From positions 156,178,001 to 156,242,000 of the forward strand of contig CM097884.1 of NCBI GenBank assembly GCA_044892505.1: a DNA stretch of 64,000 nucleotides, written 5' to 3'. A model generated the notes under the pieces. It worked only from the letters and a program-made list of their open reading frames with translations, did no database searches and was not told where the DNA came from. Of this stretch, positions 24,601 to 51,656 are shown piece after piece; within the stretch, counting starts at the first letter, position 1; each line of letters begins with the position of its first letter. Source of the DNA: Schmidtea nova. Taxonomy: Eukaryota. A program made the position numbers and the translations under genes.

Positions 24601-25567
24601 TCAACATAATTTAAATTACAGATTAATTTGTGCTTCGGTCAATATTATATTTATTTTAATATAACACGATAAATCAAACAAGTTTCTAATCCGTGCTTTT
24701 GGCACAAATATTTTTCCCAATGGTCTTGAAATGCTCTTTTTTCGTTTGGATTTTCAAGATACTCCTGCCATTATGGGTAATTAAGTTTTAATAAATGAAT
24801 ACTTTATCAAACACTAATAATAATTAAATATATAAAAAATGTTGAGTTTATTTTATATAATTTTCAGTAGGAACTTTTTCTCTGACTCCGTGTTCTCTTT
24901 AAATAATCAATGGCTTTACTCAACACAGAAATAATCTTTATTAAGACTAAAGTTTTCACAACAATTTACAATTTTTTTATCCTACGGCAGGGATCCCAAT
25001 AACAAACCTCCTCAAGTGCAACTATATTTCTTTTCACAAACGAACCGTCAAATCCTTGCACGGCTCTGTTTGAATTATTCCACTAGTTACTCTCGCTTAT
25101 GCTGGGTTCATGGAGGGGTTAGATGAAAAATGTTCTAACAATGACTAGCGATCCCTCATCCATGATCATGCATAAAATTGCAATTCTACACTCAAGCGCC
25201 CTTGATTATTTCCCTATATAATCAAGTTGGTGATGCGCAGGGTGGTTAAACAATGATGGGCAGGTGAGCACTATCGCTAGTACTACTCCCCATTTATGTT
25301 TACGGGTTCATTGCTGCCGTTAGAAGGACTTATGCTTTAATCATCTACTTGTGTATTCCGCGTTAATCTTTCAGAAAATTTATTTTTATCATTTCTCAGT
25401 CTGCGAGAAGTATTTCAACGAATGCTCGCTTAATTATTTTGTTATCTCTATTCGATATTTTGTAAACTGAATTTATACTTTTGTTCTATCTTTATCTAAT
25501 CATTGGTAAAGTTAATTAAATCAATTCAAATGAACGATAAAATTCTTAAGCCAATACAACAATTTAT

Positions 25568-26164
25568 TTAATTTCTAATGAGTTCGGTAAAAACTCCCGC
25601 CGGAGGAAAAATCTCCGTCAATAATGCCTCCTCGGTCATCTGATGTAGACCATCTACTTGGCTTTGTAATCGCTGGGCAAATAATTTTCTCTGTCTCCGC
25701 CGTTTCTGCCCAATGCGCTTGCGTTTCTGGTGCGCAGTTGCCGGTGAGGTGGTTGAATTTGCTGCAGGAGCTGTCTCATTCCGACTTTCGAGTAGATCGG
25801 CGACATCCGTGCCAATGGAATTTACCGTCTTCTTTTCGGATGTCCAAGCTTGGTACGTAACCGGACGGATTTGCTCTCTGAGCTCCTTCTCAATATATGA
25901 GGCAGTTACGGAATGGAGGCATTTTCGGAGTTCTATCTTTGTAGCCTCCCATTCCATTTGGTAATTGGCTGCAGTCTGCTGGGCGCGCTCGGTTTTACTG
26001 ATTTGCTCCTTCATTCGGGCCGGAGCAAACCAGCTTTTGCGCAAATATTCAATCTGTGCCTCTGCTTTGATCAATTGTGCCTTGAGGAGACCCAATTCCT
26101 TGTCCTGGGCTCTCCGAATCCGCCACATCTTTTCCAATTCTCTCTGCATCAAATCGGGGTTCAT
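25568..26164 (-). CDS. LTR-encoded 198-aa protein: coiled coil + Arg-rich basic motif
   Basis: Intact in both LTRs (copy at 52148-52744). It contains KRKRIGQKRRRQRK and has AG one base before the ATG. Confidence 0.7.
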   Translation of the reverse strand: MNPDLMQRELEKMWRIRRAQDKELGLLKAQLIKAEAQIEYLRKSWFAPARMKEQISKTERAQQTAANYQMEWEATKIELRKCLHSVTASYIEKELREQIRPVTYQAWTSEKKTVNSIGTDVADLLESRNETAPAANSTTSPATAHQKRKRIGQKRRRQRKLFAQRLQSQVDGLHQMTEEALLTEIFPPAGVFTELIRN

Positions 26165-26355
26165 TCTATAATTTATTCAGGATATTTACTCTATGATTTA
26201 ATTATATGAAAATTAAAATCTGATCATAGGATTATTAGGTCACGAATATGAACTATTAAAATGCGAAACAAAACAAAAAAAAATATAAATAAAAAACAAA
26301 ATTCACTAATGAACTATAATATTTTAATACAATTTCAACATTTGTTGATCAGTTT

Positions 26356-26835
26356 TCATCTTCGAAACAAACAATGCAATTCGCTGTTAATCGGTTTCTG
26401 ACGCAGACGAGCCCAGGAAAACGCAGGTTGTCCTTTCTGGCATTCCTTGCCGAACGGTTTTCGCGGTAGGAATTCGTGCAGACCCAATCGGCATAGCTCT
26501 CGACGGGGGATATGCCCCCAATAAATTACACGGCTTGTCCGTCCATCTGTGTCCTTGATCAGTACGACAAGTCGGCCAAATTTGTTCGAGTACGGCCTTT
26601 GAGAAATCGGCCAGTTCGGTCCTCCTCGATAGAGTATTTCATCGTTTCCTCCGTCCCAGATGGAAAACGGGCACTTTCGACCGAACCCCTGTCGCCACTT
26701 ATATATCTGGCAGTTGAGGGTTCGCAATATCGATGCCGGTAGATCCTTGAGCTGCGAGATATTTCCATTTCGTAGATTCCCTTGTTCCATATTCCGTAGT
26801 TGAGTTAATTGATTCATAAGTTCAGCTGTCGACAT
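26356..26835 (-). CDS. LTR-encoded 159-aa protein of unknown function
   Basis: ATG directly after an AG. The 5'-LTR copy (53041-53415) is truncated by a CGA/TGA difference. Confidence 0.6.
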   Translation of the reverse strand: MSTAELMNQLTQLRNMEQGNLRNGNISQLKDLPASILRTLNCQIYKWRQGFGRKCPFSIWDGGNDEILYRGGPNWPISQRPYSNKFGRLVVLIKDTDGRTSRVIYWGHIPRRELCRLGLHEFLPRKPFGKECQKGQPAFSWARLRQKPINSELHCLFRR

Positions 26836-28436
26836 CTATATTATATTTATTGGATATAAAATATACGAGTTAAGGGGGAAATTCGTTGCTAATTTAATTA
26901 TACTGTATATGATCACAAAAGTTACTTAAAAATAAGATTAATTTGATTTCTCTCCGCCGTGATCTACCACGGTCGGAATAAAGAGTTCATAATTAGTCCT
27001 GTGCTATATACAGCATTCAGGAATTATCACATTTAATCAAGATTTCCGCGCTATATACAGCGGTCGGATTATAACTTGGGAACCGCGCCATATACGACGA
27101 TCGGCCTATTTTTAGTAACTAATTTTAATTTGGATTTTCCGACGCATTCCATCGCGATCGGAATTTATCGATATTAAAATTTTGTAGGCGAGATGCTGAT
27201 TCCGAATGAAATCGGACTTTGGACTACGTTGGATTTTCTCATTCCAGCGAAATTATTCAAATTTATTTTATTTGTTGCTCACTGTTTTTCCATGCGGGAG
27301 GTTCCATTTCAATTCAATTTACTAAAATTTAAAGAATGAACATGCCCTACCATGGGGTGTCCCTCCTTATCAATCCGCCCTCCGCAATCTCCCTATTTGG
27401 CCCTCGACCTCCGTCCGTTGTGCAACCCAGAATTAAATAATTAGTAAATGGTCTGTACTAGACTAAAAATTCAATCAAATTTTCTAAATAAAATTCCACA
27501 TCTAAACTAAATAATAAAAAGGTTGAACCGCCATGTGAGACCCTGAGGCCCCACAACGACGACTCGGACTCCCTCGCCGCGTGAGCAGCATAGGAAGTAT
27601 AGCTATATGCATTTAAGTGTCAATAAAATAATCAATGAAAAAATAAAATAACGTTTACATATAAAATTTTAATTAAATAAAAATCATGGGTACATCATAT
27701 AAGATAAAAAATAACAAAATTACTTCCGTACTTGAATATGTGATTCCTTGTATGAAATTCGGTTTTTTCAAAAATTTACTCAAATCAAAGTTTAGTCTTG
27801 ATCTTGAGTGAAAAGTAAACGTCTATGTCTGTGATTTTTGGATCGGTATTTATACTGATCCGTCTGGTTGGATTGACCAATCAGGATCAGGCCGTCCTTC
27901 AAAGTATTTTTATTATTTTAATCTAATCTAAACATTATTTTGTTTCCTTTTCCGGTTTCTCGCTGGGTGGTCCTGATTTTCCAAGTAATTGATTAATTAT
28001 TTGTACTATTATTTTATTTAATTCTATTTTTTCTTATTTCAGGCCCCCCTTTGCGGTTGTTTACCGGTTTATTTTCAAAATTTCCTTTTACTGAAAATTT
28101 ATCAATTATTATTTGTCGTTTTATTGTTATTTTTAATTTGTTTTTCTTGCTATTTTTATTTTTATTATTTCTTTATTGTTTCATGCTTTTGTTCGTTTTA
28201 TTGTGTTTTTAGGTGATTTGGCGGGCCCAACATCACCCGGGGACCCCTAAAATTGCGTCCCGCAATTAATTATACATAAGTACTTATATTCATCATCCAT
28301 AAAAAGTTTTATAAAGTTATACATGCAAAGAAAAAATCACATAAGGTGATCGAATTTATACATATCATAAAGTTTGTCACTAAATAGTCAAAATGTAATG
28401 ATTTGTCACAATAGTTCGACGAGTTTATCATAATGT

Positions 28437-29006
28437 TTATACAATTTGTTCGATCGTCTGGCTCGCTTGGGGTTGAGTTCGGGTCCTCTCGTTGATCATT
28501 TGTAGCTCGTAGTGGGTTTGAATGTGGTTGAGATGGCTCCTTATTCGTCTTTGAGCTCGGTTATCTCGTCTGGAGGTTTGGTTGTAGATTTTCTGCTTTT
28601 GTTTTAGGATTTTTATTCTATATGAGGCAAGCAGGATTGTGATTGCGATGATAGTTGTGCTGACTGCTAGGATTATGATGATTGCTATGATCCATTTCTC
28701 TTGATATTCTATTTCAGCTTGGGATAGGCTTTTTATGGGTTCTCTACCTTCTTTCAGGATTTTTCGGGTTTCTTCTAGTTTCAGTTGTTGATTATCGAAG
28801 ATTTGTTGGATTTGACGATCTTGATTGTGGGGGAATTTCTGTCGGAATTCGTTGATTTCTTTAATTACTTCTTCGATTAGGCTGTCTACTTTCTGATAGG
28901 TTTTGTCGGGTAGAACTCGTAATTGGGTTTCGGTTAGTTGTAGATCTTCTCTCTGTAGGGTAATGGTTGTTAACCATAGGAGTGTTGCTATTGCGAGCTT
29001 TCTCAT
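28437..29006 (-). CDS. 189-aa predicted type I membrane protein
   Basis: Start MRKLAIATLLWLTTITL (signal-like), a helical ectodomain, TM WIIAIIIILAVSTTIIAITILLASY and a basic cytoplasmic tail. Confidence 0.75.
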   Translation of the reverse strand: MRKLAIATLLWLTTITLQREDLQLTETQLRVLPDKTYQKVDSLIEEVIKEINEFRQKFPHNQDRQIQQIFDNQQLKLEETRKILKEGREPIKSLSQAEIEYQEKWIIAIIIILAVSTTIIAITILLASYRIKILKQKQKIYNQTSRRDNRAQRRIRSHLNHIQTHYELQMINERTRTQPQASQTIEQIV

Positions 29007-29081
29007 TTCTTTTATACATCGGTCAATACAGCTTGACACTTTTTATTTTACATAATTTATTTACACTTGGTTTCCGCACAT

Positions 29082-30143
29082 TTATACAAGGGTTTCGTTG
29101 GGTTCGTGAAAACCTTCGTCTTGAGGTTCCACCTGATTTATGGGGAGTGGCATCCATATTACCGTGCTCCTCCACATTTCGACTTCTTCTCGGTATGTGT
29201 GGGATATCTGGATCTCTTCATCTAATAAGTATTCCAGATAGTTCGCCTGTTCTGTTAGGGTTTCAATTTGTTTTTCTAGTTCTGCCAATTTTTTCTCTCT
29301 CTCTTCCTTCTCCATCATTTCGGTTACTGCTGCTGTGATACTTGTTTCTTTTATTGGTATTGGTTTTTCTGCCAACTTCTTTCTCAGTTCTTCGTTTTCT
29401 TTTGTCAAATTTGTTATGTTCTCTTCATAGCTCTGCCTCGTTTCTTCCAGTCTTTCTTTAGTTCTTTTTAATTCTATTTTCTTCTGGGTGATCACTCCTT
29501 GATATCCATTTATGTCTCTTTTCATGTTTTCCTCCTTGTGATTCCACATTCCGGTCAGCATACCTTTTAATTGTTCTTGATTGGCTAAATCTTCTCCCAT
29601 TCTTTGTACTTGATAAGTTAATTCTTTTATTTTCTTGGCTTGTTCTCTGATGAGTTGTTGTCTTTTCTTACTCCATACTTTATTTGACGCTTCTTGACTG
29701 ATCTTTTGCCCTAATTCCTCTTTTAATTCATCGATCTCTTTAAACAGTTTCCAATCATCGCTGTACGCTGTTCGTTCTATTATCTCCCTTGCTTCCTTGT
29801 AAGAGTCTTTTGCCTCTTTCTTCCAATATCTTGCTTGTTCTGTGATTGACTGAATCTTATGGTCTGTTTTTATTTGTTGTCTATCCCTATCCTCTCGTCG
29901 CTCTTTCATCATCTCTTTGTAGTATTCGTTTTGTTGTCTTAGCAGTTTGTAGACTTCTTCTATTTTTTCTCGACTTCTTTGATTCGTTTTCTCGGCTTCT
30001 CTTAGTGCTTGGGTTTGTCTTTCCAATTCTTCCTGTTTTCGATAATAGGCATGAATCCATATCCCAATCCGCTCCATGTGATTTCTGATCATTTCGTCTT
30101 GATGTACTGTTACTTCTTGTAAGGTTACTTCTATATTTCCCAT
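29082..30143 (-). CDS. 353-aa long coiled-coil protein
   Basis: Uninterrupted ORF with E/K/Q/R-rich heptad-like sequence and the same A-rich codon style as the rest of the element. Confidence 0.8.
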   Translation of the reverse strand: MGNIEVTLQEVTVHQDEMIRNHMERIGIWIHAYYRKQEELERQTQALREAEKTNQRSREKIEEVYKLLRQQNEYYKEMMKERREDRDRQQIKTDHKIQSITEQARYWKKEAKDSYKEAREIIERTAYSDDWKLFKEIDELKEELGQKISQEASNKVWSKKRQQLIREQAKKIKELTYQVQRMGEDLANQEQLKGMLTGMWNHKEENMKRDINGYQGVITQKKIELKRTKERLEETRQSYEENITNLTKENEELRKKLAEKPIPIKETSITAAVTEMMEKEEREKKLAELEKQIETLTEQANYLEYLLDEEIQISHTYREEVEMWRSTVIWMPLPINQVEPQDEGFHEPNETLV

Positions 30144-30256
30144 TTCTATAATTACAGATAAAAAGAATATTTAATCATTTTTTATTTTTATTGTTTTTGA
30201 TTATTCGTTAATTCATATTGTTTCTATACATTTTATTTACATGGTCACTTCCTTCA

Positions 30257-31633
30257 TTACGCCAACCATCCTTTTCTGTCTGTTTTCTCATGCCTCTCCA
30301 TCTCTATGTATAGCGTGTCTGCATATAGTCGCTCCCATAGGTTTTCTTTCCTTATAAACATTGGTTCTCCTGCTGCTAGTCCGCATTCTGTTGTTGGTTT
30401 TTCGCTCGTACTGGTATGTTTGTCTGTTTCAAAGAACTTTTCTACTGGTTTTCCCATACTTTTGATTCTTATAATGACTCCTACTTTCAAGGGCCATTCT
30501 ATTAGGTCATCGTATTCTCCTTTACATAGTGAGAAGAATATTGACACGTGTGTTCCTTGTCCTCTTCCGTCTCCATTTGGGTATACTTTCAATCTTATTT
30601 TAACCCCGTTTTTCCATAAATAAAATGGTGGGCTTATTACTGCTGTTTTCGTCATATTTCTGGCTTCTGCTAGTTTGTCTCTGAAATCTGTTACTTTCCA
30701 TAGGTAAGGTGCGATTGGTAAGTCCCTTCTTTCGTCAATTTCTCGTATTAATTGATTATATTGTATTTTCATTCCTTTTCCTAATTCTTCTATGGCTATT
30801 ATTTTCTTTTCCATTTTTTCGCGAGTTAGTTCAAACTGCTCTCTTGTTTCTAGTAGTAAACTCATCATTATCTTATGTGATTCTACTTCTTTTTCTAATT
30901 TCTGGATTGTCTGTTCCGTTCCTTTTGTCGTTTCGTTTGACATTTCCACATGCGTTAGTGCTGCTTCTTCTAGGTGTTGTTTCATTGATTGCCGCGTCCG
31001 CTTTTCTTTGCATCCCTGTTTGTTATATGGACATTCTCTTGGTCTTTCGGTACATACTTTCCAATGTTCATGTAACTTTACTTCTTCTGTTATTTCGCAA
31101 TTGTTTGGACATTTACTTACATATTGTCTACATACTTTCTCCTCTGTTATATTCAAGTGTTCCTCTTCGATTTTTCTCCTTGTTTCTCGGGCTTCACAAT
31201 ACTCGCATGCGATTTCTTCTTCTTTACATTCTTCCTTGTGTTGTTCTCTCTTCTTTAGAATTATTGTCTGTTGGCACTTCTCGCATTCGGTTCTTTTCTC
31301 CTCGCACTTTTCCATATGGTTTTCTAGATTACTTATTTGTCCTTGCCATGTACAAGGTGTATTTACGCACTCCGTTGTGGTGCTCATAATTTCTCTTTGG
31401 GTTGCTTTGTCCGTTCTGGTTTCGTCCAACACTATTCCTCCTTCTTTACGTTCTGGGCATGTTGTTGTTCCGGTGGTATCTAATTCTTGTATACATTTTG
31501 TACATATTCTACATCCACATATCGTTTGTCTGGGTTCTCGTAATAAATTGTTACATTTTCCGCATGTGAGCCTCTTGCTCCATTTTCTGTTTTCTAATCT
31601 CAAAATTTCGATTATTCGTTCTTCTCTGTCCAT
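30257..31633 (-). CDS. Full-length TRAF-family protein (RING, TRAF zinc fingers, coiled coil, MATH)
   Basis: RING CGKCNNLLREPRQTICGCRICTKC and about five Cys/His fingers. MATH domain YLWKVTDF...SPPFY...YPNGDGRGQGTHVSIFF...GEYDDLIEWP...DTLYIEM. No introns. Confidence 0.95.
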   Translation of the reverse strand: MDREERIIEILRLENRKWSKRLTCGKCNNLLREPRQTICGCRICTKCIQELDTTGTTTCPERKEGGIVLDETRTDKATQREIMSTTTECVNTPCTWQGQISNLENHMEKCEEKRTECEKCQQTIILKKREQHKEECKEEEIACEYCEARETRRKIEEEHLNITEEKVCRQYVSKCPNNCEITEEVKLHEHWKVCTERPRECPYNKQGCKEKRTRQSMKQHLEEAALTHVEMSNETTKGTEQTIQKLEKEVESHKIMMSLLLETREQFELTREKMEKKIIAIEELGKGMKIQYNQLIREIDERRDLPIAPYLWKVTDFRDKLAEARNMTKTAVISPPFYLWKNGVKIRLKVYPNGDGRGQGTHVSIFFSLCKGEYDDLIEWPLKVGVIIRIKSMGKPVEKFFETDKHTSTSEKPTTECGLAAGEPMFIRKENLWERLYADTLYIEMERHEKTDRKGWLA

Positions 31634-31726
31634 TTTCTACAATAATATATACATTCGACTTGTCATTTATTTTTGGATTTTTCTTGTTTTTATTTTTACA
31701 TATTTATAGTTTTCCGCTTTATTTAT

Positions 31727-32083
31727 CTATGGCTCATTCGTTGAATCTGGTTCCGCTTCGTTGTTTAATCTATTTATTACCCAACTCATCCATCCTTCTT
31801 CGGATCCTTCTCTTTCTCCTCGTGTTAAATGGTTTATTTCTATTGCTTGTCTTTGATTGGTGTTGCTTATCGTTTGATTTTCTCTGGTGAGTTCAGTTAT
31901 CGCTCTTTGTTGTTCTTCTATTCTGTGTAATTGTTCAAAACAGTTGTTATAACTTTCTGATAATAACATTTGTCTTTCCGCTAATTGGTTCTGTAATGAG
32001 TTGACTGTTCGTACTAATAAATCACATTGTGCTTTCCATCTCATAGCCATAGTTATTTCAGTTGTTTCGTCCTGTTCGGTCAT
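31727..32083 (-). CDS. 118-aa coiled-coil protein with C-terminal Trp-rich amphipathic segment
   Basis: Heptad-rich core, EGWMSWVINRL near the C-terminus, and AG three bases before the ATG. Confidence 0.7.
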   Translation of the reverse strand: MTEQDETTEITMAMRWKAQCDLLVRTVNSLQNQLAERQMLLSESYNNCFEQLHRIEEQQRAITELTRENQTISNTNQRQAIEINHLTRGEREGSEEGWMSWVINRLNNEAEPDSTNEP

Positions 32084-32208
32084 TTTCTAAATTATATACA
32101 TCATTTACTTTGTTTTTCTAGCTTTTTACAATTTTTATAATATCGATACCCATACTATTACGGTAATGCTTTGTTATTTACACTATTATTTACAGTCATA
32201 ATCCGCCC

Positions 32209-35200
32209 CTATACCATCATTATCGTCTTTTCCTCGTATCGTTCTTCATCTTCTATTTGTTTCCAGAATTCTTTACCTTTCGTTCTTCTTTGAAATTTTT
32301 GCTGTATCTCTTCTGGTATTTCTATTCTTTGCTTCATAATTTTAATATCTGGCCATTGTATGGCTGTCGCTTTGTTTCTCTTTCTGTATCTCCAATATAC
32401 TATTATGCTTGTCGTCAGTATTCCATATGCTATTAATATTCCTATACTCATTAATCCTATTATTGTTTTTCCACGGTTTGTTGCTTTGATTTTATTCTGA
32501 TTCGCTTTAATCTCATTTTGGGTTTGAGCCTCTGGCTTCTTCTCCTTCTGTACTTGATTCTTGACTTTGTTCATTACTTCTTGTGTAGACCAATGGCGGT
32601 TTAGTAGTTGTTTGACGTTATTTTCTTTTGTTCGGTTTTCCATGTTTCCTGGTTCGATCTGTTGTTGTAGTTTCTCTGAGATCTGATATAATCCGCATTC
32701 TGGTTTTTCTGAACCTTCTCTGGTGAAGGTACATATCGCGTATGTCCTATTTACTTCCATTTTCTTTAATTCGACTTTTTCCTTATTCCCTATTTCTTTA
32801 CAGTGGGTTAGGTTGTCTTCTTCCCCTTCTGGGTTATGCTTTGTCCAACATATTCCTTTAACTGTTTGATCGAGTCCTGTTATTGTCAGGGTTCTTTCTG
32901 TCTTTGTTAATTCTTCTTCATCGAATTTCAGTATCTCTCCTTTTTGAAATGTCTTGCACTTTTCTATTCCGGGTTGATCTTCTTGGATTCCTTTCTCCCA
33001 TATACATATACTTCCTTCTTCATTCATTTGTATTTCTTGTATTTCGATTTCCTTGTTTGTTTGTGATTCGTCGCTTGTCTGTACTTGGTATTCCTTCCTT
33101 GGTTCGTTGTATGTTCCCCAGCATAGTTTGTTGCTGCTTGTTTTTCTTATTGTTATGGCCATTTGTTCTATTATTATTCCTCTGTCAAAACGTTTGGACA
33201 TTGCTAGTATTAATGCTATGCATACGCACTCCTGTGGGGGTGATATTCTTTCTCTCGTTTTATTGGTGCTTCTCTCCCCTTCTCTTGGTTTGTTCGTTGT
33301 ATTTTCCTTCTGAGTTGCTGGTCGATCTATTGTGTTTTTGATCTCTTTCTTTGTTGGTTTTACTTTGTACCATTCAAGTCTGGGCGTTTCATATTTTTGA
33401 CATACGACTGTCTTAGGTAGCCCTGACTTCTTTTCCTTTCCTATTATGCATATCCGATGCATGATTCCTCTATCCATCCCTTCTATTCGTATTATATCCT
33501 GGTCGGATTTTCTGATTATGCATTTTAGTGGGTTATCTTTCCCAATTGGTTCATCCTCCCTATTCCAGCATATTTTCTCGACCTCCTGGACATTTACTAT
33601 TTTTATCCCTGCTTGTAGGTTTGTTGCTTCTTCCCTATTGATTAATGTCAATATTATTGTTAGACCCAACCATTTTGAACTCTGCGGTAGGCTTCTGGTT
33701 CGCCTTTCATATTTTTTCTCTTCGCCTTTAATCTCTTTTATTTCCTTGTCTTTGTTGTTTATTCCTAGTTTTCCGCTTTTCGCTTCTTTCTTATTTGGTT
33801 CTTCTCGTGCTTTTTCTTCTAGTATTTCTACTCCATGGCTTGTATTATCTATATTTAGCCATTGGGTTGTTGATTTTCTTGGGCTTATCTTGCGTAGCCA
33901 TATAGCTGATAACGCGATTATTACTGGTATGGTTGCTGTTAATATTCCTAAGCCGATTAGTTCTTTAATTTCTTTATTCTTGTCTGTTTGTATAGGTTCG
34001 CTTTGGTTGAACATTATTCCGTATTGTCCCTTTAGTTTTCTCATTAATTGTTCTCGTTCCTCTTGCTTTCTTTTGACTTCTTTGATAACTTCTTCAGGTG
34101 TCCATTTTGCTTGAGGGTCGGTTATTGTTTTTTCTACGTTCATTTGTTCATTCGTTTGGCTTAGTTCCCTGAATTCGAGTTTCCTTGTTATTCCTTTTGA
34201 TGTTGCGTTCGCTGGTGTATAGTAGGTTTCGCATCTTTCTTGTTGGTTTCCTAGTGCGTCCGTTTTTTCTATTGTACATACTTCGTACTCGCTATTAAAT
34301 TGTAGTTTTTCGATCTTGATTTCTTTATTTGTTTTTCTGCACTCTCTTGATTGTCTTCTTATATGTTTTTGGACTATTATCCAACATATCTCCAATGTTT
34401 TATTCTCTATTTTCCATAATGTCAGAGTTGCTGATGTCTTTTTCTCGGGTTTTGTCGTAACTTCTTGGCTTATCGGTTGTTTATTGTTTTTAAAGGTAGT
34501 GGTGTACTTCGGTTTCCCTTTGTTTCGTTGTCTTCTTTTATTTTTTCGTGTTATCGTTTTAGTTCTTGTTCCGGATGAAGTGGTGTATATTCCGCATTCT
34601 AGATCGTTTATCGTTATCTGATCATTTTTCTTTACCAGACATATTTCGTAAGTTTGTTTCCTTTCTAAACCTTTTATTTGTATCGTCGTTGCTCCTGTGC
34701 TTGTTCGACATTGTGGTGTCTTTCTTTCATTCGTCTCTTTTTCGTACTTCCTCCAGCATACTCCTTTCACATTTGGTTCTATTTCTTTTATTTCTAATGT
34801 TATGTTTAGTTTCTGCTTGATTTGTTTATTTCTCTTCCTCGTTCTCCTTCTGAACTTTATTACCTCTCCAGGTTGGAATGTTTTACATTTTGTGGTACCT
34901 TTCTTGTTCCTCTCTTTTTCAAGTAGGCATAGTTGGTACATCTTGTCTGCTCTTACTTCGGATACTTTAATTACTTTGTTTGTTGTTGGCTTTCGACTTT
35001 TCCTTATTTCGTTTACACCGATTTCTTCGTCATTCCTCGCCCAACATTTTATGTTAGTGTTCTGTGTATCTTCCACTTCTGTTATTGTCATAGTTTCAAT
35101 TTCTATTCCTTCCTCTAATCGTTTTATTATTATTAGTATGAGTGCTAAGCATAATACTTCCATTTGGTAAGACACTCTTTCGGTTTCGTTTGTGGCCACT

Positions 35201-35640
35201 CTTGCTTCGGGCCTCTTTATTGTAATTCGTATAGTTGGTGTTGTTTGCTTATCTATTGCCTGGGGTTTTTTGTTTTCTGTTCCCTGTGTCTCTGTTCTTC
35301 CGCATTTTCCAATGATGTAATCTCCTTTGGGTGACTGTTGTATTGTCATGGCTGCTTTAGGTGTTTGGTATTTTGCACATGCGATTGTGTTGTGTGATCT
35401 TGGATGCATTTGTTTCCTAACGGTGCATATTTTGTACCAGGTATCTAGATCTAAGTCATTTATCTCTATGATTTCTTGCTCGTGTTCTGAGATTCTGCAA
35501 TCCATCGGGCTATTTTGTTCCGTGACTTTGTCCTTTTTCGACCAACATACTCGTTCGATTCCTTTTGCGTTTTTTATTTGTATTATTGCCCTTTCTTCAC
35601 ATGTCATTCCTTGACTTGGATTAATTAACGTTATAATCAT
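32209..35640 (-). CDS. 1143-aa membrane protein with about seven FN3-like Cys-containing repeats and two TM segments
   Basis: Repeats of CW...C...I..L....Y.IC...C (e.g. IEINDLDLDTWYKICTV, IQIKGLERKQTYEICLV). TMs are LIGLGILTATIPVIIALSAIW and IIGLMSIGILIAYGILTTSIIVYW. The FN3 assignment is by motif resemblance. Confidence 0.75.
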   Translation of the reverse strand: MIITLINPSQGMTCEERAIIQIKNAKGIERVCWSKKDKVTEQNSPMDCRISEHEQEIIEINDLDLDTWYKICTVRKQMHPRSHNTIACAKYQTPKAAMTIQQSPKGDYIIGKCGRTETQGTENKKPQAIDKQTTPTIRITIKRPEARVATNETERVSYQMEVLCLALILIIIKRLEEGIEIETMTITEVEDTQNTNIKCWARNDEEIGVNEIRKSRKPTTNKVIKVSEVRADKMYQLCLLEKERNKKGTTKCKTFQPGEVIKFRRRTRKRNKQIKQKLNITLEIKEIEPNVKGVCWRKYEKETNERKTPQCRTSTGATTIQIKGLERKQTYEICLVKKNDQITINDLECGIYTTSSGTRTKTITRKNKRRQRNKGKPKYTTTFKNNKQPISQEVTTKPEKKTSATLTLWKIENKTLEICWIIVQKHIRRQSRECRKTNKEIKIEKLQFNSEYEVCTIEKTDALGNQQERCETYYTPANATSKGITRKLEFRELSQTNEQMNVEKTITDPQAKWTPEEVIKEVKRKQEEREQLMRKLKGQYGIMFNQSEPIQTDKNKEIKELIGLGILTATIPVIIALSAIWLRKISPRKSTTQWLNIDNTSHGVEILEEKAREEPNKKEAKSGKLGINNKDKEIKEIKGEEKKYERRTRSLPQSSKWLGLTIILTLINREEATNLQAGIKIVNVQEVEKICWNREDEPIGKDNPLKCIIRKSDQDIIRIEGMDRGIMHRICIIGKEKKSGLPKTVVCQKYETPRLEWYKVKPTKKEIKNTIDRPATQKENTTNKPREGERSTNKTRERISPPQECVCIALILAMSKRFDRGIIIEQMAITIRKTSSNKLCWGTYNEPRKEYQVQTSDESQTNKEIEIQEIQMNEEGSICIWEKGIQEDQPGIEKCKTFQKGEILKFDEEELTKTERTLTITGLDQTVKGICWTKHNPEGEEDNLTHCKEIGNKEKVELKKMEVNRTYAICTFTREGSEKPECGLYQISEKLQQQIEPGNMENRTKENNVKQLLNRHWSTQEVMNKVKNQVQKEKKPEAQTQNEIKANQNKIKATNRGKTIIGLMSIGILIAYGILTTSIIVYWRYRKRNKATAIQWPDIKIMKQRIEIPEEIQQKFQRRTKGKEFWKQIEDEERYEEKTIMMV

Positions 35641-35675
35641 TGTTAGTAATAGTAATTCTGGTTTGAAGAATGGTT

Positions 35676-38600
35676 TTATGGTTGATTTATAACCTGTTCT
35701 TTGGGTGTCATTTTTATCTCCTTGGTCGTTTGTTCCTTGTTCTCTCTCTTCATCTCTTTGTTTTTCGTCTTCACCTTTCTTTCCTTCCTTGTCTCGTTTT
35801 CTTCTTTATCGGGTGGTTCGTGATCGCTTGAATTTTCTGAGTTGTTACCGTCGTCACTATCTGTGTTGTCATCTCCCCCTGGCTCGTCGAAAATGTCGTC
35901 CTCGACATTGATTTCTTCTATTAGTTTCGCATACGCTAATGTCGTTAGATTACTTGCCTCAAATTCTTGTGTTTCTACCTGCTCCGGTATTACTTTGTTA
36001 GTGGATTTATGTTCCAAGATTTCCTTTTTGGCCTTGATCCAATTGTTGATGTATGTCTTCATCAATTCTTTCCATTTGCCTGTGTATTTTTCCTCTTTCG
36101 GGCTGGTTGTGATTTTTAGATCTTTTCTTTCCATAAACATCTTCAATATCTCTGGCCATTTATACGTTATTAAGGCACTTCTTATACACCAGTTTTGGTT
36201 ATGTTCTGTAAACTTATTAATCCTGAATGCTGGTTCGTTAGTATTAGGATTTATCCACGTAAGTATTGATTCTGTTAGTTCGACGTTGTTCATCATTGCT
36301 AGTACACTGGGTTTCTTGACCGTATCAGTTAGGTGATCTATTTCTTCCTGATTTGGGACGGTTTTAATGAAATTGACCATTATCCAATTGTGTGTTAATA
36401 ATGCTACATCCAATATCGAATTATCTTTATCTGTCTTTCCTGTAAGTCCTGCACCTGCTTTGTATAGTTCTTCTAATACCTTTGTTTTCGTTTTGGCCCT
36501 TGCTGCAAATACCATAAGTGTATCTCCTTTCTCGTCTATCATATTCATATTGCTTCCGCAATTTAGCATTACTCTTGCAATTTCCATTACTTTCCTATCT
36601 TTGCCATTTCGTAGAGCTCTATGTATGGGCATTATTCCGTCTTTTGGTAATAGGAATGTTACTGGCATCTCCTTTTTTATTATTACTATGTCGTTACCAT
36701 TGTATGTTCCTTTTGCGTATGCGTGTACTTTTTCAACTAATGCGCCGAGTATTTCCAGTGCATGTTTACTATTCTCGAATTCCGGTAACAATTCTTTTGC
36801 TTTTTCTTGTATCGCATCTAGTCTAGCTTGATATGGTGCTTCTGCTTTGAAGAGTGGTGTGAGTTTCTTGTTACTTTCTCTTTCTTTTTTCTCTAAAACC
36901 TGTTTGCATTTTTCGGGATGGTTTAAGATTTTTACTAATTCCTCATATTCGCTTACTATCATCTGGTATTTCTCGTTAAAATTGTTTATGTCTTTGTATG
37001 TTATTAGTTTATCAAGTGGTTTCGCACACCATTTCCTAATCTTATTGAATAAGGCTTCCTTCTCTTTATCGAATTTGTATTCTTCTTCATTCTTTGTGAT
37101 GTTTATGTTTCCTCTGTCTAATAAGGTTAGTAATGTCTTCTGATCACAAGTAAATTTCAGAAGATATCTTAACAGCGCGTTTTGTCCTTCGCTGTATACT
37201 TCGTTTATGTCTAAGACCCATGTATCCTCTTCTGGTCGTTTCCATTTGATTAACTTACGGATCGTGTTGCATTTACCAATTTTGATTGCCTCTTTGATAA
37301 TGTCTCTTTTAACCAATTCGTCTATCTCCCAAGTGCAGTTAGCTATTATGTATTTCAGCATTGGTTGGTGAGAACTCCATATTACGTGATTTAGCACTGT
37401 TTTGTCCTCTCTATCTCGTTCTGTCCAACTGAAATGAGCTTTTATCAATAGATCTATCATTTCTTTATCTGCTTGGTGGATTGCGGCTGTCATTAATGGA
37501 GTTTCTTGTTCCCGATTCCCTACGTCCAAGTTTTGGTTTGTTTCTTTTGCGATTTTTAGGAATTCTTTTGCTCTTTCAATGTTTTTACACTCTATCGCAT
37601 TATGTAAGGCTGGTTGTCCTCCTACATCTTTCAATAAGAGTATTTCAGGGATTTTTTCCAATAATTCAGAAATAATTGGTTCGGTTGGTAATCCTTGTGC
37701 GTAACGGCTAATTATATGTCTAATATCCCTTGATATGCCTGCTTCGTCTCTAACATGCCATCTTCCCATTATCTCTCTCGCCTTCAATATGATTTCTTTA
37801 TTTCTGATTTCCTTTTGCCTTATTTCTGCTTTGTCGTCTTCCGTTACGTTAGCTCTGAGCATATTTATCCTGGCTGTTTGTGATCTAGTTATTATTCGAT
37901 TTTCTGGTGTTGTAGTTATCGTTTTAGGCACCTTCTTACATCTGCAGGTGTTTACATATATGGGTCGTATTAACGGTCGATTTATTAGCTTAACTTTGAC
38001 ATTATTGTCCTTTTTGTATATAATTTCATAAGGTCCTTTCCCAGGTCTTTGGAGTTTCTTAACAGTTCCTGGTATTATTTCGGGAGTTTCTATTATCACC
38101 CAATCTCCTGGTTTTAGATCGTTCGCTTTAACATTTTTCTTCTGGTCATGTAAATCCTTATAACTTTCCTGATAAAATTTAATGTTGAGTTCTGCCGTTT
38201 TCCATATTTCCTGCATTCTTTCTTTGAATTTGGTTACGTAGTCGTCATCTTCCATATATTGCGATAATGGTGGCTGATACTCTAAATCTATGGGCATGTT
38301 GCATTCTCTTCCATACATAAGTTGAAATGGGCTTAGTTTTGTTGCTGCATGTATCGACATTCGGTATGCCATTAAACATAATTTTATATATTCGTCCCAA
38401 TCAGTCTGATGTCTGCTGACGTAATTTGATAACATTCTGATCAATGTACCATTGAATCGCTCCGTTTGTCCATTCGTTTGCGGGTGATATGGTGAAGTTC
38501 TCAATTTTGCTATTCTGAAATAGTTTGTTACCTCGTTCAATAACTCACTCATAAAATTAGTTCCTTGGTCTGTGAGTATTTGTTTTGGAGTTCCGTATCT

Positions 38601-41600
38601 GCAACATATTTCTTCTACCAAAATTTTTGCTACGGTTTTTGCTTTTTGGTCTTGCATGGCAAATGCTTCCGGGAATTTCGTCAGATAATCCGTTATTACC
38701 AATATATAAATATTTCCGTTTAAACTTTCTGGTAATGGTCCTATTACGTCCATTGCTATAGTTGTCATTGGCTCTGCTGGTATCGGCATTGGTTGTAGCG
38801 GGTTCTTCCATTTCTTCCCACTATCCTTTCTGGTTGCGCAAGTTAGACAATTTTTAATCCATTCTTTTATATCTTCTTCCATTGTTCGCCAATAATATTT
38901 TTGTCTCATACGATTTATTGTCTTCTTCTCGGACATATGACCTCCTAATTTCCCATCATGGTACTGGATCATTATCTCTTTCCTTCTGTTTTCCGGTAAA
39001 CACATCAATCTCTTTTCTCCGTCTTGTATTAACAACCATCCTTTATTTATTATGTAGCGATGTTGATATTTTCCTATATGTTCCTTTAGTTCCTTATTAT
39101 CCTTGAATGCCTCCATATTTCGAGACGTTAGGAACTCTATGATCTGTCCTAATTCTTTGTCTTCCTGTTGATCTTTCTTTAACTCACTAAAATCCAAATC
39201 TTCCGCTATTAACACACAAATTCGTTGTACATCAGGATCGGTTAATTCCGGAAATGTCAGTCTTGACATACAATCTGCATTCGCATTCGCTTTTCCTGAT
39301 TTAAATTTTATGTCCGGTGAGTACTCCTGTAACTGCATTGCCCATCGCATTAATCTACTGGATGTTTCCTTGTGCTGTCCTAACCATACAAGCGGTTGGT
39401 GATCTGTTGTTATGCAGATGATGTGACCCCATAATAAATATTTAAAATGTTTTATTGCTAGTATAATCGCTAATGCTTCCCGTTCTGTCCCTGAATAATT
39501 TTTCTCATGCTTTTTGAATGTCCGGCTATAATATCCGATTACACGTTCTTTTCCTTCGTCGTCGTATTGTCCTAATACGGCTCCTGCTGCATATCCGCTT
39601 GCATCTGTTGCAAGTAGGAATGGCTTCTTAAAGTCTGGGTGTACTAATATGGGTGCGGTTATCAGTTTATCTCTCAATGTTTCAAAGGCTGTTTGCTGTT
39701 CGTCCCCCCATATGAATGATACATCTTTCTTTACCAGTTCCTGTATAGGCTTTGCGATTCCGGCGTAATCTTTTATAAACTTTCTATAGTATCCACATAA
39801 TCCGAGAAATTCTTGTATTTGGGTTATTGTTTTTGGTACTGGGCATTCTTTTACCTTGTCGATATTTCTAGGATCCGGTTCTTTTCCTTTTGCTGACACT
39901 ATATGTCCTAGAAATGTTACTTTCTCTTTTGCCCAATCACACTTGGATGGCTTGAGTTTTAACTTCCATTGTCTAAGTCTAACGAATACATCTCGAATAT
40001 CTTGTATGTGTTGTTCAAATGTACTAGAGTAAATCAATAAGTCGTCGATGTAGACCATGCACTGCTTTATTCCGTGGGTGACGAAATTCATGCATCTCTG
40101 AAATGATGCTGGTGCGTTCGTTAATCCAAATGGCATTTTTCGAAATTGATATAAATCTCTCCCGATGGTAAAGGCAGTTTTCTCTTTATCTTCTTCCTTC
40201 ATTTTTATTTGCCAGTATCCGCTTTTCAGATCTAACGACGTAAAATATGCTGCTCCCTGTAAGGTTAATAACATTTCATTGATGTCCGGTAATGGGTACG
40301 TATCTCGTTTGGTCACTGTATTCAATCTTCGGTAATCTATACAGAATCTCTGTGTTCCGTCTTTTTTCTTTACCATTACCACTGGAAATTGCCAGGGTGA
40401 ACAACTTGGTTCGATTACTTCTGCATCCAACATTTTCTTCACTTCTGCTTCTGCTACTGCTTTCTGTGCTTCCGCTAATTTGTACGGCCTTAATGCAATT
40501 GGTGTTTCATCTGTTAATGGTATTGTATGTAGTGTGACATCACATGTTCCTAGATCTAAATCGGATGCTGCAAATATATCCTTATACTCTATCAGTAGTT
40601 TTTCTAACTGCTTCTTCTGGTCCTCATTTAATAATTCACTATCAATATTCCAGGTTGGTTCCTTATCTTTCTCTGCCCCTTCTATTGGTAGTTCGATATC
40701 CATCATTGGGGTTAATTTACCTAATCTTTCGTTTTCGTATATTATTTTGTCCTCTTCATCGAAGTTTACTACGTTTATTGGGATTTCTCCATCATCGTTT
40801 ATGTTAACTAGTCCTCTTGCCATTGGCAACGCTTTCCTTTTCTCGAATCTCTTACTTGGTTCGAAAATCATATCCCCTTGGATTGTCGGATCTATTTTTA
40901 CGTAACATATTTTCTCCTTTCTTGCGGGTATTATCATTTGCTTTGAACTCGTCACTTTGGCTTCTATTGCGCATATTTGTCCTGTGCGATCCTTTAGTCT
41001 CATTGTTCCGAGGTCGATTACAATCTCTTTAAATAATGCTGGCATCAAATCTGTTCCGATGATGCAAGGTACGCTTAATGCTGGTATAACTGCTACGTAT
41101 GTATCGATTTCCGTGTTTAAGTGGCGTATTTTTACCCACCATCTTCCTGCTACTTCTACAACTTCTTTGCTACATGCAATTACATGGACGTTTGTCCTTT
41201 TTATATCTCGTCTTTGCTCTTGTGGTATCCATTTGATGTCGATGGCGGAAATGTTTGCTCCAGTGTCGATCATTGCTTCGATTTCTCTTCCGTTAATTTC
41301 TATTGTCGTGGTTAGTACTGGACCTGTGTTTGATGACATTACTGCGATCGTGTGTGTATCTCCTTGTGGATCTACGCTTCTACATCTTCTCATTTTATAA
41401 TCTTCTGGTATCATGGGGTATACATTTGTCATTGGCATCATTTGCATCGTGCTATTTTTTCCTCCTTGTAGTGGTTCTTGATACATGGTTGGTGGAGGTG
41501 CGTAACATTTCCATGCGTCGGCTGGATTCTTTTCGATGTATTGTGGTGCTTGGTTCTTATACACTTGTCCTCCTTTATAGTCGTCATCGTCGTCATCGTC

Positions 41601-43394
41601 GTCACTCGAATCATGTTGGGTTTTATATCCTTTCATCCTCTCCCATAAACCTTTTCTTTCTCTCTTGAGCTGTTGTCTTGCTTGTTCGTCATTCATTATC
41701 TTTTTAAATTTTCGTCCTACTTCTTCATCTGTTCCCTTCATTTTTGCTAATATCTTTAGGAGTCTTTTTATTCGGTGGATATCTTTTGAGTGACCGTGTA
41801 ACACCATCGTTTTCGCAAGGAATGGTAAAAACCCTACTACCATTTTCCAATTCACTTTCTTTTCTCTCTTGTAGATATCGAAACATGCGAGCATTTGCGT
41901 TATTATCACTCTGACGATTTGTATTATTAATATAACCCCCAGTATTCCAGCCATCATTTGTCCGAATATCAGAAATCTTCCCCACATTGCTTTCATCATA
42001 TTTTCTGTGGCTTTCTTGAAGTGTGCTGGTGACAACAACCGTTCATAATTCGGTCCTTCTCGATAATCCGTTCCTCCCGTTATCGTTACGATATTTGACA
42101 GTAATGCTTCTCTTCTTGCCGGGAATAATATATTCTGCCTTGCTGCTTCTAAATCTTTCGGACTATATATTCCATTGTTTGAGACATCTACGTCGCTGAA
42201 TTGCCTATCCTTTGACAACTGCATTAGCTCGAATTCTCTTGGTGCTATCACTTCGGATCTTCCTGGGAACATAACCCATTTACCATCTGGTTTTTGATAA
42301 AGCGGTCCATACGCATTACTACAGTTGAATGGATTTGGTTCAAACCCTGGTGGATTGATGATTCTCGTCACTGGTTGAACGTATCGTACTTTTCCTTTAT
42401 AATCGATTTCTAACTCATTTGTACAGGTTCCAGGTTTCAACTGTGTTGTTGCTGCTAGCGATGCGTGTGTCTTTTCGCAGATGTATACGTACATTGCTTC
42501 TCCGACCACTCTTCCGAAATGTCCTTCTCTCAGTGGTAATAATGGCATCGCGCTATCTGGATTCGTAATCGCTACTGCCAACTTTGTCTTTAATATTTCT
42601 CGATTCAGTATACAATCATTGTTTATTAGATCGTAGTACACTTTTTGTAATGAGGCTTGTCCTCTATGGAATAGGAAATCCATTTTATTATTCACATACA
42701 GGTGTAGTTTGATATCCATTGTGTCGATTTTGGGTTTCGCATTCGGCACTTCTTGTTTTGACACATATATTCCTGGATAATTCGTTTCGTATACCGTTGT
42801 ACTACACTTAAGGGTTGCTTTCCCTTTTATGAACCTCATTCCCACATCCTGATTTGTGGTTATCAACACTGTTGGTGTGGCTCTCATCTCTATCCGTTTT
42901 TCTCTATGATCCGGTTTCAGTTGTCTTTTATTCTCCAAAGCTTCCTTGAGATGCTTTGCTCTAGCTTTGTCGTCATCGTCTTCTTCCTGAAACGTTTTTC
43001 CTTGGATTTCGTCGAACTGTGCTCCTTGTAGCAGTTGTAATTGACATTCGTTCACCTTTGGTTTGTACACTAATGTTGACATTCCCGTTTGACACATGCT
43101 CCTGTCGATTTTACACATGGATAACGTTTTCATTTCTCCCGTTGTTGGTTCGAAGAATGCTTCATAGCTTTTTAATTCGACTATATACGTATCCATTACT
43201 ACTAGGTTGGTTGCGGGTACTCCGAATATCGGGTAGGTTTCTCCCTGACAATATCCTTCTCCTCCCGTAATCCGTCCTGCTACATAGTACGTCTGTTGCA
43301 TCATCATTCCTGGCTTTCCTCTTATCTTGATTTTATCTCTTGTTGTTACTTCTCCATGTTTAAACAGTGCTTTGCAGTCTTCTCCTTGTAACAC
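35676..43394 (-). CDS. 2572-aa segment: envelope C-terminal part - protease - RT - RNase H - integrase - ankyrin repeats
   Basis: PR MIDTGAN (~41260), RT LDLKSGYWQI/MPFGLTNAPASFQR/YIDD (40041-40052), RH LATDAS...TEREALAI...TDHQPL. IN HDGKLGGH...CLTC, AMDVIGP, TDQGTNF, NGQTERFN, GPY (~38030). Ankyrins GQPALHNAI, ETPLMTAA, IMPIHRAL, GDTLMVFAA. Confidence 0.96.
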   Translation of the reverse strand: MLQGEDCKALFKHGEVTTRDKIKIRGKPGMMMQQTYYVAGRITGGEGYCQGETYPIFGVPATNLVVMDTYIVELKSYEAFFEPTTGEMKTLSMCKIDRSMCQTGMSTLVYKPKVNECQLQLLQGAQFDEIQGKTFQEEDDDDKARAKHLKEALENKRQLKPDHREKRIEMRATPTVLITTNQDVGMRFIKGKATLKCSTTVYETNYPGIYVSKQEVPNAKPKIDTMDIKLHLYVNNKMDFLFHRGQASLQKVYYDLINNDCILNREILKTKLAVAITNPDSAMPLLPLREGHFGRVVGEAMYVYICEKTHASLAATTQLKPGTCTNELEIDYKGKVRYVQPVTRIINPPGFEPNPFNCSNAYGPLYQKPDGKWVMFPGRSEVIAPREFELMQLSKDRQFSDVDVSNNGIYSPKDLEAARQNILFPARREALLSNIVTITGGTDYREGPNYERLLSPAHFKKATENMMKAMWGRFLIFGQMMAGILGVILIIQIVRVIITQMLACFDIYKREKKVNWKMVVGFLPFLAKTMVLHGHSKDIHRIKRLLKILAKMKGTDEEVGRKFKKIMNDEQARQQLKRERKGLWERMKGYKTQHDSSDDDDDDDDYKGGQVYKNQAPQYIEKNPADAWKCYAPPPTMYQEPLQGGKNSTMQMMPMTNVYPMIPEDYKMRRCRSVDPQGDTHTIAVMSSNTGPVLTTTIEINGREIEAMIDTGANISAIDIKWIPQEQRRDIKRTNVHVIACSKEVVEVAGRWWVKIRHLNTEIDTYVAVIPALSVPCIIGTDLMPALFKEIVIDLGTMRLKDRTGQICAIEAKVTSSKQMIIPARKEKICYVKIDPTIQGDMIFEPSKRFEKRKALPMARGLVNINDDGEIPINVVNFDEEDKIIYENERLGKLTPMMDIELPIEGAEKDKEPTWNIDSELLNEDQKKQLEKLLIEYKDIFAASDLDLGTCDVTLHTIPLTDETPIALRPYKLAEAQKAVAEAEVKKMLDAEVIEPSCSPWQFPVVMVKKKDGTQRFCIDYRRLNTVTKRDTYPLPDINEMLLTLQGAAYFTSLDLKSGYWQIKMKEEDKEKTAFTIGRDLYQFRKMPFGLTNAPASFQRCMNFVTHGIKQCMVYIDDLLIYSSTFEQHIQDIRDVFVRLRQWKLKLKPSKCDWAKEKVTFLGHIVSAKGKEPDPRNIDKVKECPVPKTITQIQEFLGLCGYYRKFIKDYAGIAKPIQELVKKDVSFIWGDEQQTAFETLRDKLITAPILVHPDFKKPFLLATDASGYAAGAVLGQYDDEGKERVIGYYSRTFKKHEKNYSGTEREALAIILAIKHFKYLLWGHIICITTDHQPLVWLGQHKETSSRLMRWAMQLQEYSPDIKFKSGKANANADCMSRLTFPELTDPDVQRICVLIAEDLDFSELKKDQQEDKELGQIIEFLTSRNMEAFKDNKELKEHIGKYQHRYIINKGWLLIQDGEKRLMCLPENRRKEIMIQYHDGKLGGHMSEKKTINRMRQKYYWRTMEEDIKEWIKNCLTCATRKDSGKKWKNPLQPMPIPAEPMTTIAMDVIGPLPESLNGNIYILVITDYLTKFPEAFAMQDQKAKTVAKILVEEICCRYGTPKQILTDQGTNFMSELLNEVTNYFRIAKLRTSPYHPQTNGQTERFNGTLIRMLSNYVSRHQTDWDEYIKLCLMAYRMSIHAATKLSPFQLMYGRECNMPIDLEYQPPLSQYMEDDDYVTKFKERMQEIWKTAELNIKFYQESYKDLHDQKKNVKANDLKPGDWVIIETPEIIPGTVKKLQRPGKGPYEIIYKKDNNVKVKLINRPLIRPIYVNTCRCKKVPKTITTTPENRIITRSQTARINMLRANVTEDDKAEIRQKEIRNKEIILKAREIMGRWHVRDEAGISRDIRHIISRYAQGLPTEPIISELLEKIPEILLLKDVGGQPALHNAIECKNIERAKEFLKIAKETNQNLDVGNREQETPLMTAAIHQADKEMIDLLIKAHFSWTERDREDKTVLNHVIWSSHQPMLKYIIANCTWEIDELVKRDIIKEAIKIGKCNTIRKLIKWKRPEEDTWVLDINEVYSEGQNALLRYLLKFTCDQKTLLTLLDRGNINITKNEEEYKFDKEKEALFNKIRKWCAKPLDKLITYKDINNFNEKYQMIVSEYEELVKILNHPEKCKQVLEKKERESNKKLTPLFKAEAPYQARLDAIQEKAKELLPEFENSKHALEILGALVEKVHAYAKGTYNGNDIVIIKKEMPVTFLLPKDGIMPIHRALRNGKDRKVMEIARVMLNCGSNMNMIDEKGDTLMVFAARAKTKTKVLEELYKAGAGLTGKTDKDNSILDVALLTHNWIMVNFIKTVPNQEEIDHLTDTVKKPSVLAMMNNVELTESILTWINPNTNEPAFRINKFTEHNQNWCIRSALITYKWPEILKMFMERKDLKITTSPKEEKYTGKWKELMKTYINNWIKAKKEILEHKSTNKVIPEQVETQEFEASNLTTLAYAKLIEEINVEDDIFDEPGGDDNTDSDDGNNSENSSDHEPPDKEENETRKERKVKTKNKEMKRENKEQTTKEIKMTPKEQVINQP

Positions 43395-50085: not shown

Positions 50086-50086
50086 C

Positions 50087-51347: not shown

Positions 51348-51656
51348 TTACTGAATAAATAATTGTTTTTAACTTTGTTATTTTTATCATTTCTAAAGTA
51401 GTAATATGTTTCGTTTTGTATCTTTTGATATTTATCAATCCTCCCCGTGTTTCCGAAAATTGTCGTCCCGACAAATTATGCATGCATTTTGATTTTTAAA
51501 TTCACTTTTGTTCACTGTCGTGTTGTTATTTAATTTTTATACAATAATTTACATTTAATTATAACCTTTCTGTTTTTTATTAAATTAATTGACCTGAGCA
51601 TTTTAAACCTCTCTGCAGATTTTACGTTTACATTTTTCCGATAAAACGAAGTTGAT

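Follow-up and report, generated by a model that had tools for sequence, protein, structure and literature searches.

A complete TRAF gene among the accessory genes of a multi-copy Burro-like Gypsy element

TRAF proteins carry TNFR/TLR signals onward; they trimerise through their coiled coil and MATH domain, bind receptor tails, and signal by their RING or by recruited IAPs. The planarian Burro/GYPSM1 elements have reportedly been reviewed by Arkhipova and Yushenova. According to the accessible part of PMC6431247, these elements exceed 30 kb, have an env between gag and pol, and carry CCHC knuckles along with MATH_TRAF_C, BIR, BCL2, ubiquitin-like, and ankyrin domains; the polyprotein measures about 4,900 to 5,100 aa. 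Their MATH_TRAF_C cargo was described between 2007 and 2019, the S. mediterranea elements having the domain within their polyprotein and the D. tigrina element having it in an accessory ORF upstream (PMC6431247, in part). Burro1 is described as highly abundant and active and is upregulated on SMEDWI-2 loss (PMC8532177, in part), and its B-IAP reportedly protects stem cells from apoptosis (cited in PMC13465017).

The planarian TRAF family is reported to be greatly expanded, with counts of 121 TRAF/MATH domains (PMC6109357) and up to 282 MATH contigs (PMC7586133), and in the accessible portions of both papers the origin of this expansion is unexplained. TRAFs are not linked to elements in that portion of PMC6109357, nor are transposons or Burro mentioned in that of PMC7586133; the accessible parts of PMC11410931, PMC7958881, and PMC13238120 hold nothing on a TRAF-element link. 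A literature search, with Grohme 2018 and Lee 2026 outside its scope, returned no paper joining the planarian TRAF expansion to the Burro MATH domain; a narrower search on MATH-bearing retrotransposon accessory genes turned up PMC6431247 and PMC6109357 and nothing else. What the present locus adds to earlier reports, which in their accessible parts concern a MATH domain only, is a complete, apparently selected TRAF in a 3' cassette, and a prior mention is possible.

The window (the whole 64-kb stretch of DNA that was analyzed) contains a Burro-like Gypsy LTR element at 25100..54812 on the minus strand, 29,713 nt long with ends TG...CA and flanked by a 4-bp target-site duplication (25096-25099 and 54813-54816). 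All stranded features of the element given below lie on the minus strand. The 5' LTR (51680..54812) and the 3' LTR (25100..28232) are each 3,133 nt and differ by 5 mismatches and no indel; ORFs of 198 and 124 aa are contained in the former. Located 6 nt inward of the 5' LTR is a primer-binding-site-like stretch (51655..51673), which may be of the tRNA-Pro type; no tRNA gene was found in the 64-kb window. In sense order, the element reads LTR, primer-binding-site-like stretch, RING ORF, repeats, gag, polyprotein middle, env, protease, RT, RNase H, integrase, ankyrin repeats, and five ORFs.

The upstream accessory ORF (50886..51347, 153 aa) ends in a C-terminal RING of the zf-C3HC4_3 kind (Pfam E=1e-11), presumably IAP-like, and no BIR domain was found in it with Pfam. 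Tandem repeats (32-nt x7 and 29-nt x11; 49824..50410, no strand) separate it from the gag portion of the polyprotein (45551..49245), in which Retrotrans_gag and three CCHC knuckles (zf-CCHC) were recognized and which is interrupted by a frame change near 48190 and by in-frame stops at about 48008 and 45551. The polyprotein middle (43346..45550) holds the start of the fusion glycoprotein and a candidate BCL2-like helical region, with a frame change before 43307. The following 2,543-aa ORF (35676..43307) encodes a Monjiviricetes-type fusion glycoprotein (env), protease, RT, RNase H, integrase, and ankyrin repeats (Ank_2, E=2e-14); the env match in Pfam (PF24664, E=3e-55) covers residues 140-480 of this ORF, which runs on into PR-RT-RH-IN. 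Two frame changes and as many in-frame stops break the polyprotein of the window copy at four places, and its gag-to-ankyrin span of about 13.6 kb is in pieces. The window copy is a decayed but recent insertion; its young LTRs around a broken interior point to a defective copy that was probably mobilised in trans.

Other repeats surround the element. A satellite with units of about 274 nt (21011-24573) ends about 500 nt before the 3' LTR, and inverted arrays of a 16-nt unit (18226-18920) flank an assembly gap of 192 N (18490-18681). An ISXO2/Merlin-like transposase ORF (6022-6576, minus strand) lies between 83-nt inverted repeats (5852-5934 and 7040-7122). On the other side, at 56019-58945 (minus strand), is the remnant of a second, distant Gypsy, with RNase H and integrase pieces of 29-50% identity to the element pol and an ORF faintly like the FN3-like ORF described below (E=0.015).

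With Pfam, no BIR, polyprotein MATH, or dUTPase-like domain was detected in the window element, and it was therefore filed as Burro-like and not as one of Burro1-4. BCL2-like and ubiquitin-like domains before env gave no Pfam, PDB, or atlas match. A model of the polyprotein middle (pLDDT 40) had no significant fold match; 28 of the 46 weak rows listed (E 1.5-7.8) were Bcl-2 chains, which are common in the PDB, and a BH2-like word was seen by eye. Residues 81-192 encoded at 43346-45550 (minus strand) weakly matched ribosomal protein S18 (E=0.003), possibly by chance. The best pol match reached 48% among those compared, and there was no Burro reference sequence among the matches. The best-scoring pol relatives, P0011 and P0012 (48-51%), also extend past the integrase into extra sequence; P0012 is labelled a bacterial MAG protein and is likely a mislabelled animal element. 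From published descriptions and domain order, the element is classed as a Burro-like giant Gypsy. The preliminary description had missed this Burro-type identity, and MATH_TRAF_C cargo in such elements had already been published (PMC6431247, in part).

Five ORFs follow pol, in the order 1,143 aa, 118 aa, TRAF, 353 aa, and 189 aa. The first (32209..35640) has repeated FN3-like modules and hydrophobic stretches, its FN3 assignment being a lead (Pfam E=0.004, atlas scores up to 0.81), and resembles two tandem FN3-repeat membrane proteins; its product might serve the adjoining TRAF as a partner receptor or a decoy. The 118-aa ORF (31727..32083) matched no family above the cut-off. The TRAF ORF (30257..31633) encodes 458 aa without an intron and comprises RING, zinc fingers, coiled coil, and MATH; no second TRAF was found in the window. 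It is followed by a coiled-coil-like ORF of 353 aa (29082..30143) and by one of 189 aa (28437..29006) with N-terminal and internal hydrophobic stretches (by eye) and no family.

Pfam identified the MATH domain of the TRAF (MATH_2, E=6e-21, residues 310-445; TRAF-mep_MATH, 3e-19) and its zinc fingers (zf-TRAF, E=3e-8), while the RING was weak (zf-C3HC4_4, E=0.008). Against the PDB, the MATH domain matched TRAF3/2/5/1/4 (best E=2e-23, TRAF3), and residues 21-150 matched RING-zinc-finger constructs of TRAF6/5/2 (best 3e-13). An AlphaFold model built on a 20-row alignment (mean pLDDT 86) had RING, zinc fingers, helix, and MATH sandwich, with the coiled coil as a single 78-residue helix (225-302, block pLDDT 89-96). 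Judged by its sequence and model, with MATH, coiled coil, and zinc fingers all present, the protein is a TRAF2/3/5-like member of the family. In its RING, a Cys replaces the His ligand of canonical TRAFs, a trait common to its relatives. The RING of the window copy has seven of the eight zinc ligands, the eighth being absent; all eight are present in P0133 and P0158, and contigs from all four DNA runs (see below) differ from the window at the lost codon, so that the loss is apparently private to the window copy. The Cys/His ligands of the zinc fingers are invariant or nearly so across the 20 alignment rows. The preliminary description had claimed all TRAF modules in an intact ORF; the single frame, the lack of introns, and the presence of every module were upheld, and the claim must be amended for the RING of the window copy, which is short of its eighth ligand.

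These features bear on whether the protein could act as a dominant-negative decoy, forming mixed trimers with host TRAFs or occupying receptor tails without passing the signal on, and thereby damping innate responses against the element. The weak Pfam RING, the absent last ligand in the window copy, and residues aligned to the TRAF2/3 receptor-binding groove that are partly altered relative to the PDB structures (their receptor-binding roles are our assumption) would all suit a decoy, as would the ankyrin repeats in pol if they were IkB-like. Decoy TRAFs, however, typically have no RING. The named planarian TRAFs have the His-to-Cys replacement too, which makes it a trait of the lineage; the ligand loss seems confined to one copy, and the zinc-finger ligands are conserved as described. 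RING and zinc-finger ligands kept across relatives that are about 35% alike favor a working adaptor over a decoy, and we consider the decoy reading doubtful, if worth keeping in mind.

The TRAF ORF shares the codon style of the element. A occupies 72% of its four-fold sites, and its RSCU correlated with that of the env-pol ORF at r=0.93, compared with 0.30 for a hAT transposase ORF outside the element; this hAT-type ORF (13822-15567, minus strand) encodes 581 aa. The closest full-length relative of the TRAF had 36% identity (HMMER, best 150 of 5,831), and partial relatives had 42-44% identity over the N-terminal part among the matches listed. Both the A-rich codon style and the long residence in the element that had been proposed from the sequence are borne out by these values: codon use is as in pol, and the best full-length database match is 36% among the matches listed. 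The gene is neither unique to this copy nor near-identical to a host gene, being multi-copy and 36% identical to its best full-length match among those listed. Recent passive capture was rejected because there is no close host match among those listed and the codon style is fully changed, and a spliced host gene within the element because of the single frame and element codon use. An assembly chimera was also rejected, since contigs 9 and 24 bridge the TRAF end and spacer in diverged copies and composition is continuous. Within this multi-copy, Burro-like Gypsy element, the full-length, intronless TRAF is an established accessory gene.

Copies were examined in the contigs of four DNA runs, representing at most three samples from one study. 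In all four runs, contigs (605-1,257 per run) covered all 30 bins of 29900-32300, and in run X3, 290 of the 1,257 were under 90% alike. Summed contig depth is no copy number; even so, values in the thousands, reached in runs with 312-528 million letters, argue against a single-copy gene. Among the contigs of the four runs, none joined the TRAF to pol in another copy. Stretches of 109-763 nt within the TRAF are missing from several contigs, most of them of low depth, and copies with deleted TRAF segments may exist.

For variants, the best-supported 40 of 414 rows were used, 30 of them in the TRAF and 6 in neighbouring ORFs, with 4 spacer rows excluded. Of the TRAF sites polymorphic among copies, 14/21 were synonymous, against an expectation of 26.7% derived from the observed mutation spectrum (P=1.5e-4, best 40 of 414 rows); the corresponding crude omega among copies was 0.18 on the same rows, picked by support. 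At a further 9 sites, nearly all depth was unlike the window; 3 of these were synonymous, giving a near-neutral omega of 0.73, and the missing RING ligand falls in this window-private class. The difference between the two site classes was not significant (Fisher P=0.12). Indels were concentrated in the two spacers (9 of the 12 rows listed, out of 22), and the 3 rows within the ORF offset each other. A dN/dS of about 1, named beforehand as an outcome that would count against the preliminary description, was not what was found, polymorphism among copies being mostly synonymous (crude omega 0.18, best 40 of 414 rows). This crude omega suggests that the TRAF is kept by purifying selection among copies.

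The same data bear on a passive passenger, in which an old captured cDNA would be drifting and the synonymous excess would reflect biased variant sampling. Such a reading could appeal to the use of the best 40 of 414 variant rows, to the near-neutral window-private changes, and to the relatives P0148 and P0158, which as predicted proteins have lost the MATH end. It is at odds with the synonymous excess (P=1.5e-4), with the concentration of indels in spacers, and with an open frame, zinc ligands, and MATH core that were kept despite full compositional change and that persist at no less than 64% divergence from database TRAFs (full length, among the matches listed). We regard it as extremely unlikely.

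Names were looked up for 30 proteins. In a FastTree analysis of 122 rows, comprising 121 of 158 matches (37 were left out, with lengths outside 330-620 aa), the window TRAF fell in a 20-row group with support 98, mostly with the Cys-for-His RING. A TRAF phylogeny had been suggested in the preliminary description; in an IQ-TREE analysis of 32 rows picked from the FastTree result, the window TRAF nested among planarian TRAFs, in a planarian-type clade of 21 rows (support 100/97). Named members of its clade are Dugesia japonica TRAF2-like A and Dendrocoelum lacteum TRAF-2, -4, and -5, and its nearest rows are P0133, P0148, and P0158 (support 99/97). Among 160 rows, only these three reach the amino-acid bias of the window TRAF (0.32-0.43 versus 0.35; next 0.23, median 0.07). 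They are probably element-borne too, and the shared A-rich composition may pull them toward the window row, inflating the grouping. The named planarian TRAFs had a bias difference score of 0.08-0.17, against 0.35 for the window protein, and since they have no element-type composition, a genuine host group probably also exists. A word-based protein search returned 10 TRAFs, all distant, and an extended search 9 proteins, none with an RT or integrase domain (weak evidence either way). The placement points strongly to an ancient capture, in which an mRNA of the planarian TRAF2-like group with the Cys-for-His RING would have been reverse-transcribed and taken up by the element. The TRAF relatives point just as strongly to a planarian as the host.

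Metagenomes were also scanned for TRAF, yielding 22 loci, of which only one, L002, was cassette-like; tblastn of the element's other ORFs against the 22 loci gave no match. On L002, a contig of 8.2 kb, the cassette occupies 1-6730 (plus strand); its ORFs are intronless, A-rich, and all on one strand. Two of them encode RINGs and one a coiled coil; another, of 153 aa, has a zf-C3HC4_3 RING at its end, and the rest are a TRAF, two further short ORFs, and one resembling an RNase_T (DEDD) exonuclease. No pol was found on this 8.2-kb contig. Its TRAF belongs to another planarian-type subclade than the window TRAF, and no relative of either was found among viral contigs. A third TRAF, P0144, has a first 50 residues that match a Gypsy integrase C-terminal stretch (E=1e-13 versus P0012); it is possibly a second element with a TRAF right behind the integrase, or a gene-model join. 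The three TRAFs occupy three tree places. A single clade was rejected (p-AU 7e-8), as was a six-row A-rich group (5e-4, AU test), the groups having been named after the tree places of P0144 and the window row were known. This suggests that TRAF was captured repeatedly by planarian mobile-looking elements, with L002 and P0144 as candidate settings only. A wider proposal, of at least three complete-TRAF captures, SL-trans-spliced operon-like cassettes, a large share in the planarian TRAF expansion, and a role in stem-cell survival like that of the Burro1 IAP, is put forward tentatively and is in our judgment improbable as a whole.

It is plausible that element copies inflate planarian TRAF counts. 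The flow could also have run in reverse, with much of the planarian Cys-RING group carried by elements or descended from them, and with element transcripts or domesticated element genes behind the named "host" TRAFs; this concerns origin and is compatible with the functional readings. The three mobile-looking settings at three clade places would fit, and P0196 is sister to the L002 TRAF, both grouping with the named Dendrocoelum TRAF-2, and the records of the named members give no genomic context. Against this, the named planarian TRAFs have no element-type bias and so have not long resided in such an element, and Smed TRAFs are essential (PMC7586133, in part). Reverse flow on this scale is considered unlikely. 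The significance of a selected full-length TRAF in a high-copy element is that a link between the TRAF expansion and Burro becomes testable via LTR-flanked loci. Results from planarian TRAF RNAi and expression may partly report on retroelements.

A separate RNA is required for any gene located 3' of pol. Just upstream of the 118-aa, TRAF, and 353-aa ORFs lie a T-rich tract and, no more than 3 nt from the start codon, an AG. This pattern, defined after the spacers had been inspected, was found at 3/476 sense ATGs in 28437-49245, all three being accessory starts. The other three of the six accessory starts (RING, FN3-like, 189 aa) missed it. In L002, which serves as an independent check, AG directly preceded the ATG at 4/4 starts checked. 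The spacer 5' of the TRAF (31634..31726, 93 nt) has the T-rich tract, an AG abutting the TRAF start codon, and polyA-signal-like words; that on its 3' side (30144..30256, 113 nt) has polyA-signal-like words and, at its end toward the next ORF, an acceptor-like sequence. Across spacers of 35-204 nt (28233-35675), such words were enriched (7/17, P=4e-7; 8/57, P=3e-4). Flatworm operons have a spacing peak of roughly 100 bp (PMC8629364, in part), which the 75-125-nt spacers fit. An acceptor-like AG before the ATG was seen at several starts in an operon-like layout, and the LTR ORFs start at 52744 and 53415. With moderate confidence, a spliced subgenomic RNA is predicted, from which the TRAF would be translated by way of the acceptor abutting its start codon; splicing would take a cis route or spliced-leader trans-splicing, and either fits.

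As to function, the element TRAF is predicted to be a pro-survival TRAF2/3-like adaptor, a reading to which we assign a probability of roughly 0.55. It would act as an adaptor and RING scaffold, working beside the RING, ankyrin, and possible BCL2-like products of the element, and would tilt death-receptor and innate signaling to survival in element-active cells, which on surviving would pass the element on. The simplest reading of a whole, selected TRAF accompanied by RING, ankyrin, and possibly BCL2-like products is that it works toward the pro-survival end that B-IAP serves. In planarians, Smed-TRAF RNAi led to more cell death (PMC7586133, in part).

A protein of the opposite effect has a viral precedent. 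The statement in the preliminary description that viruses usually bind TRAFs and do not encode them was too strong, as iridoviruses and giant viruses encode TRAF-like proteins, and the highest-ranking named viral protein among the structural matches listed was an iridovirus TRAF. ISKNV ORF111L is a TRADD-binding protein and an inducer of caspase-8 apoptosis (PMC3352826, in part). By analogy, the element TRAF might be a pro-apoptotic or lytic helper, late caspase-8 death freeing env-bearing particles, and the element does encode an env. Yet the viral matches are 18-21% identical, the other cargo points to anti-death functions, and a germ-line or stem-cell element would gain little by killing its cell, which makes such a helper highly unlikely. 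The pro-survival adaptor would extend the view of Burro to that of a retroelement with a death-control gene kit like that of large DNA viruses.

Compared with known systems, the element TRAF resembles ISKNV ORF111L and other iridovirus and giant-virus TRAFs in being a TRAF in a mobile genome that would act on host death signaling; the viral proteins differ in belonging to large DNA viruses, in their 12-28% identity in the listed matches, and, for ORF111L, in being pro-apoptotic. With the planarian TRAF2-like proteins (Dugesia japonica, Dendrocoelum lacteum, Smed-TRAF-2A/B), it has in common the zinc-finger pattern, a supported clade, and the Cys-for-His RING in rows spanning the RING (P0149 starts after it), whereas identity is 27-31% and the planarian proteins have no A-rich amino-acid bias. 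Burro1 B-IAP is likewise a Burro accessory protein derived from host death-control genes, but it combines BIR and RING and is animal-tested (PMC13465017, in part), whereas no BIR was detected by Pfam in the window RING ORF. The window element shares with Burro1-4/GYPSM1 and the D. tigrina element a size of about 30 kb, Gypsy PR-RT-RH-IN, a CCHC gag, tandem repeats, ankyrin repeats, an env of mononegavirus type that lies between gag and pol and is in frame with the latter, and apoptosis/ubiquitin cargo including MATH_TRAF_C. It differs from these elements as described in that its TRAF is complete and has an ORF of its own, one of the five that make up the cassette after pol.
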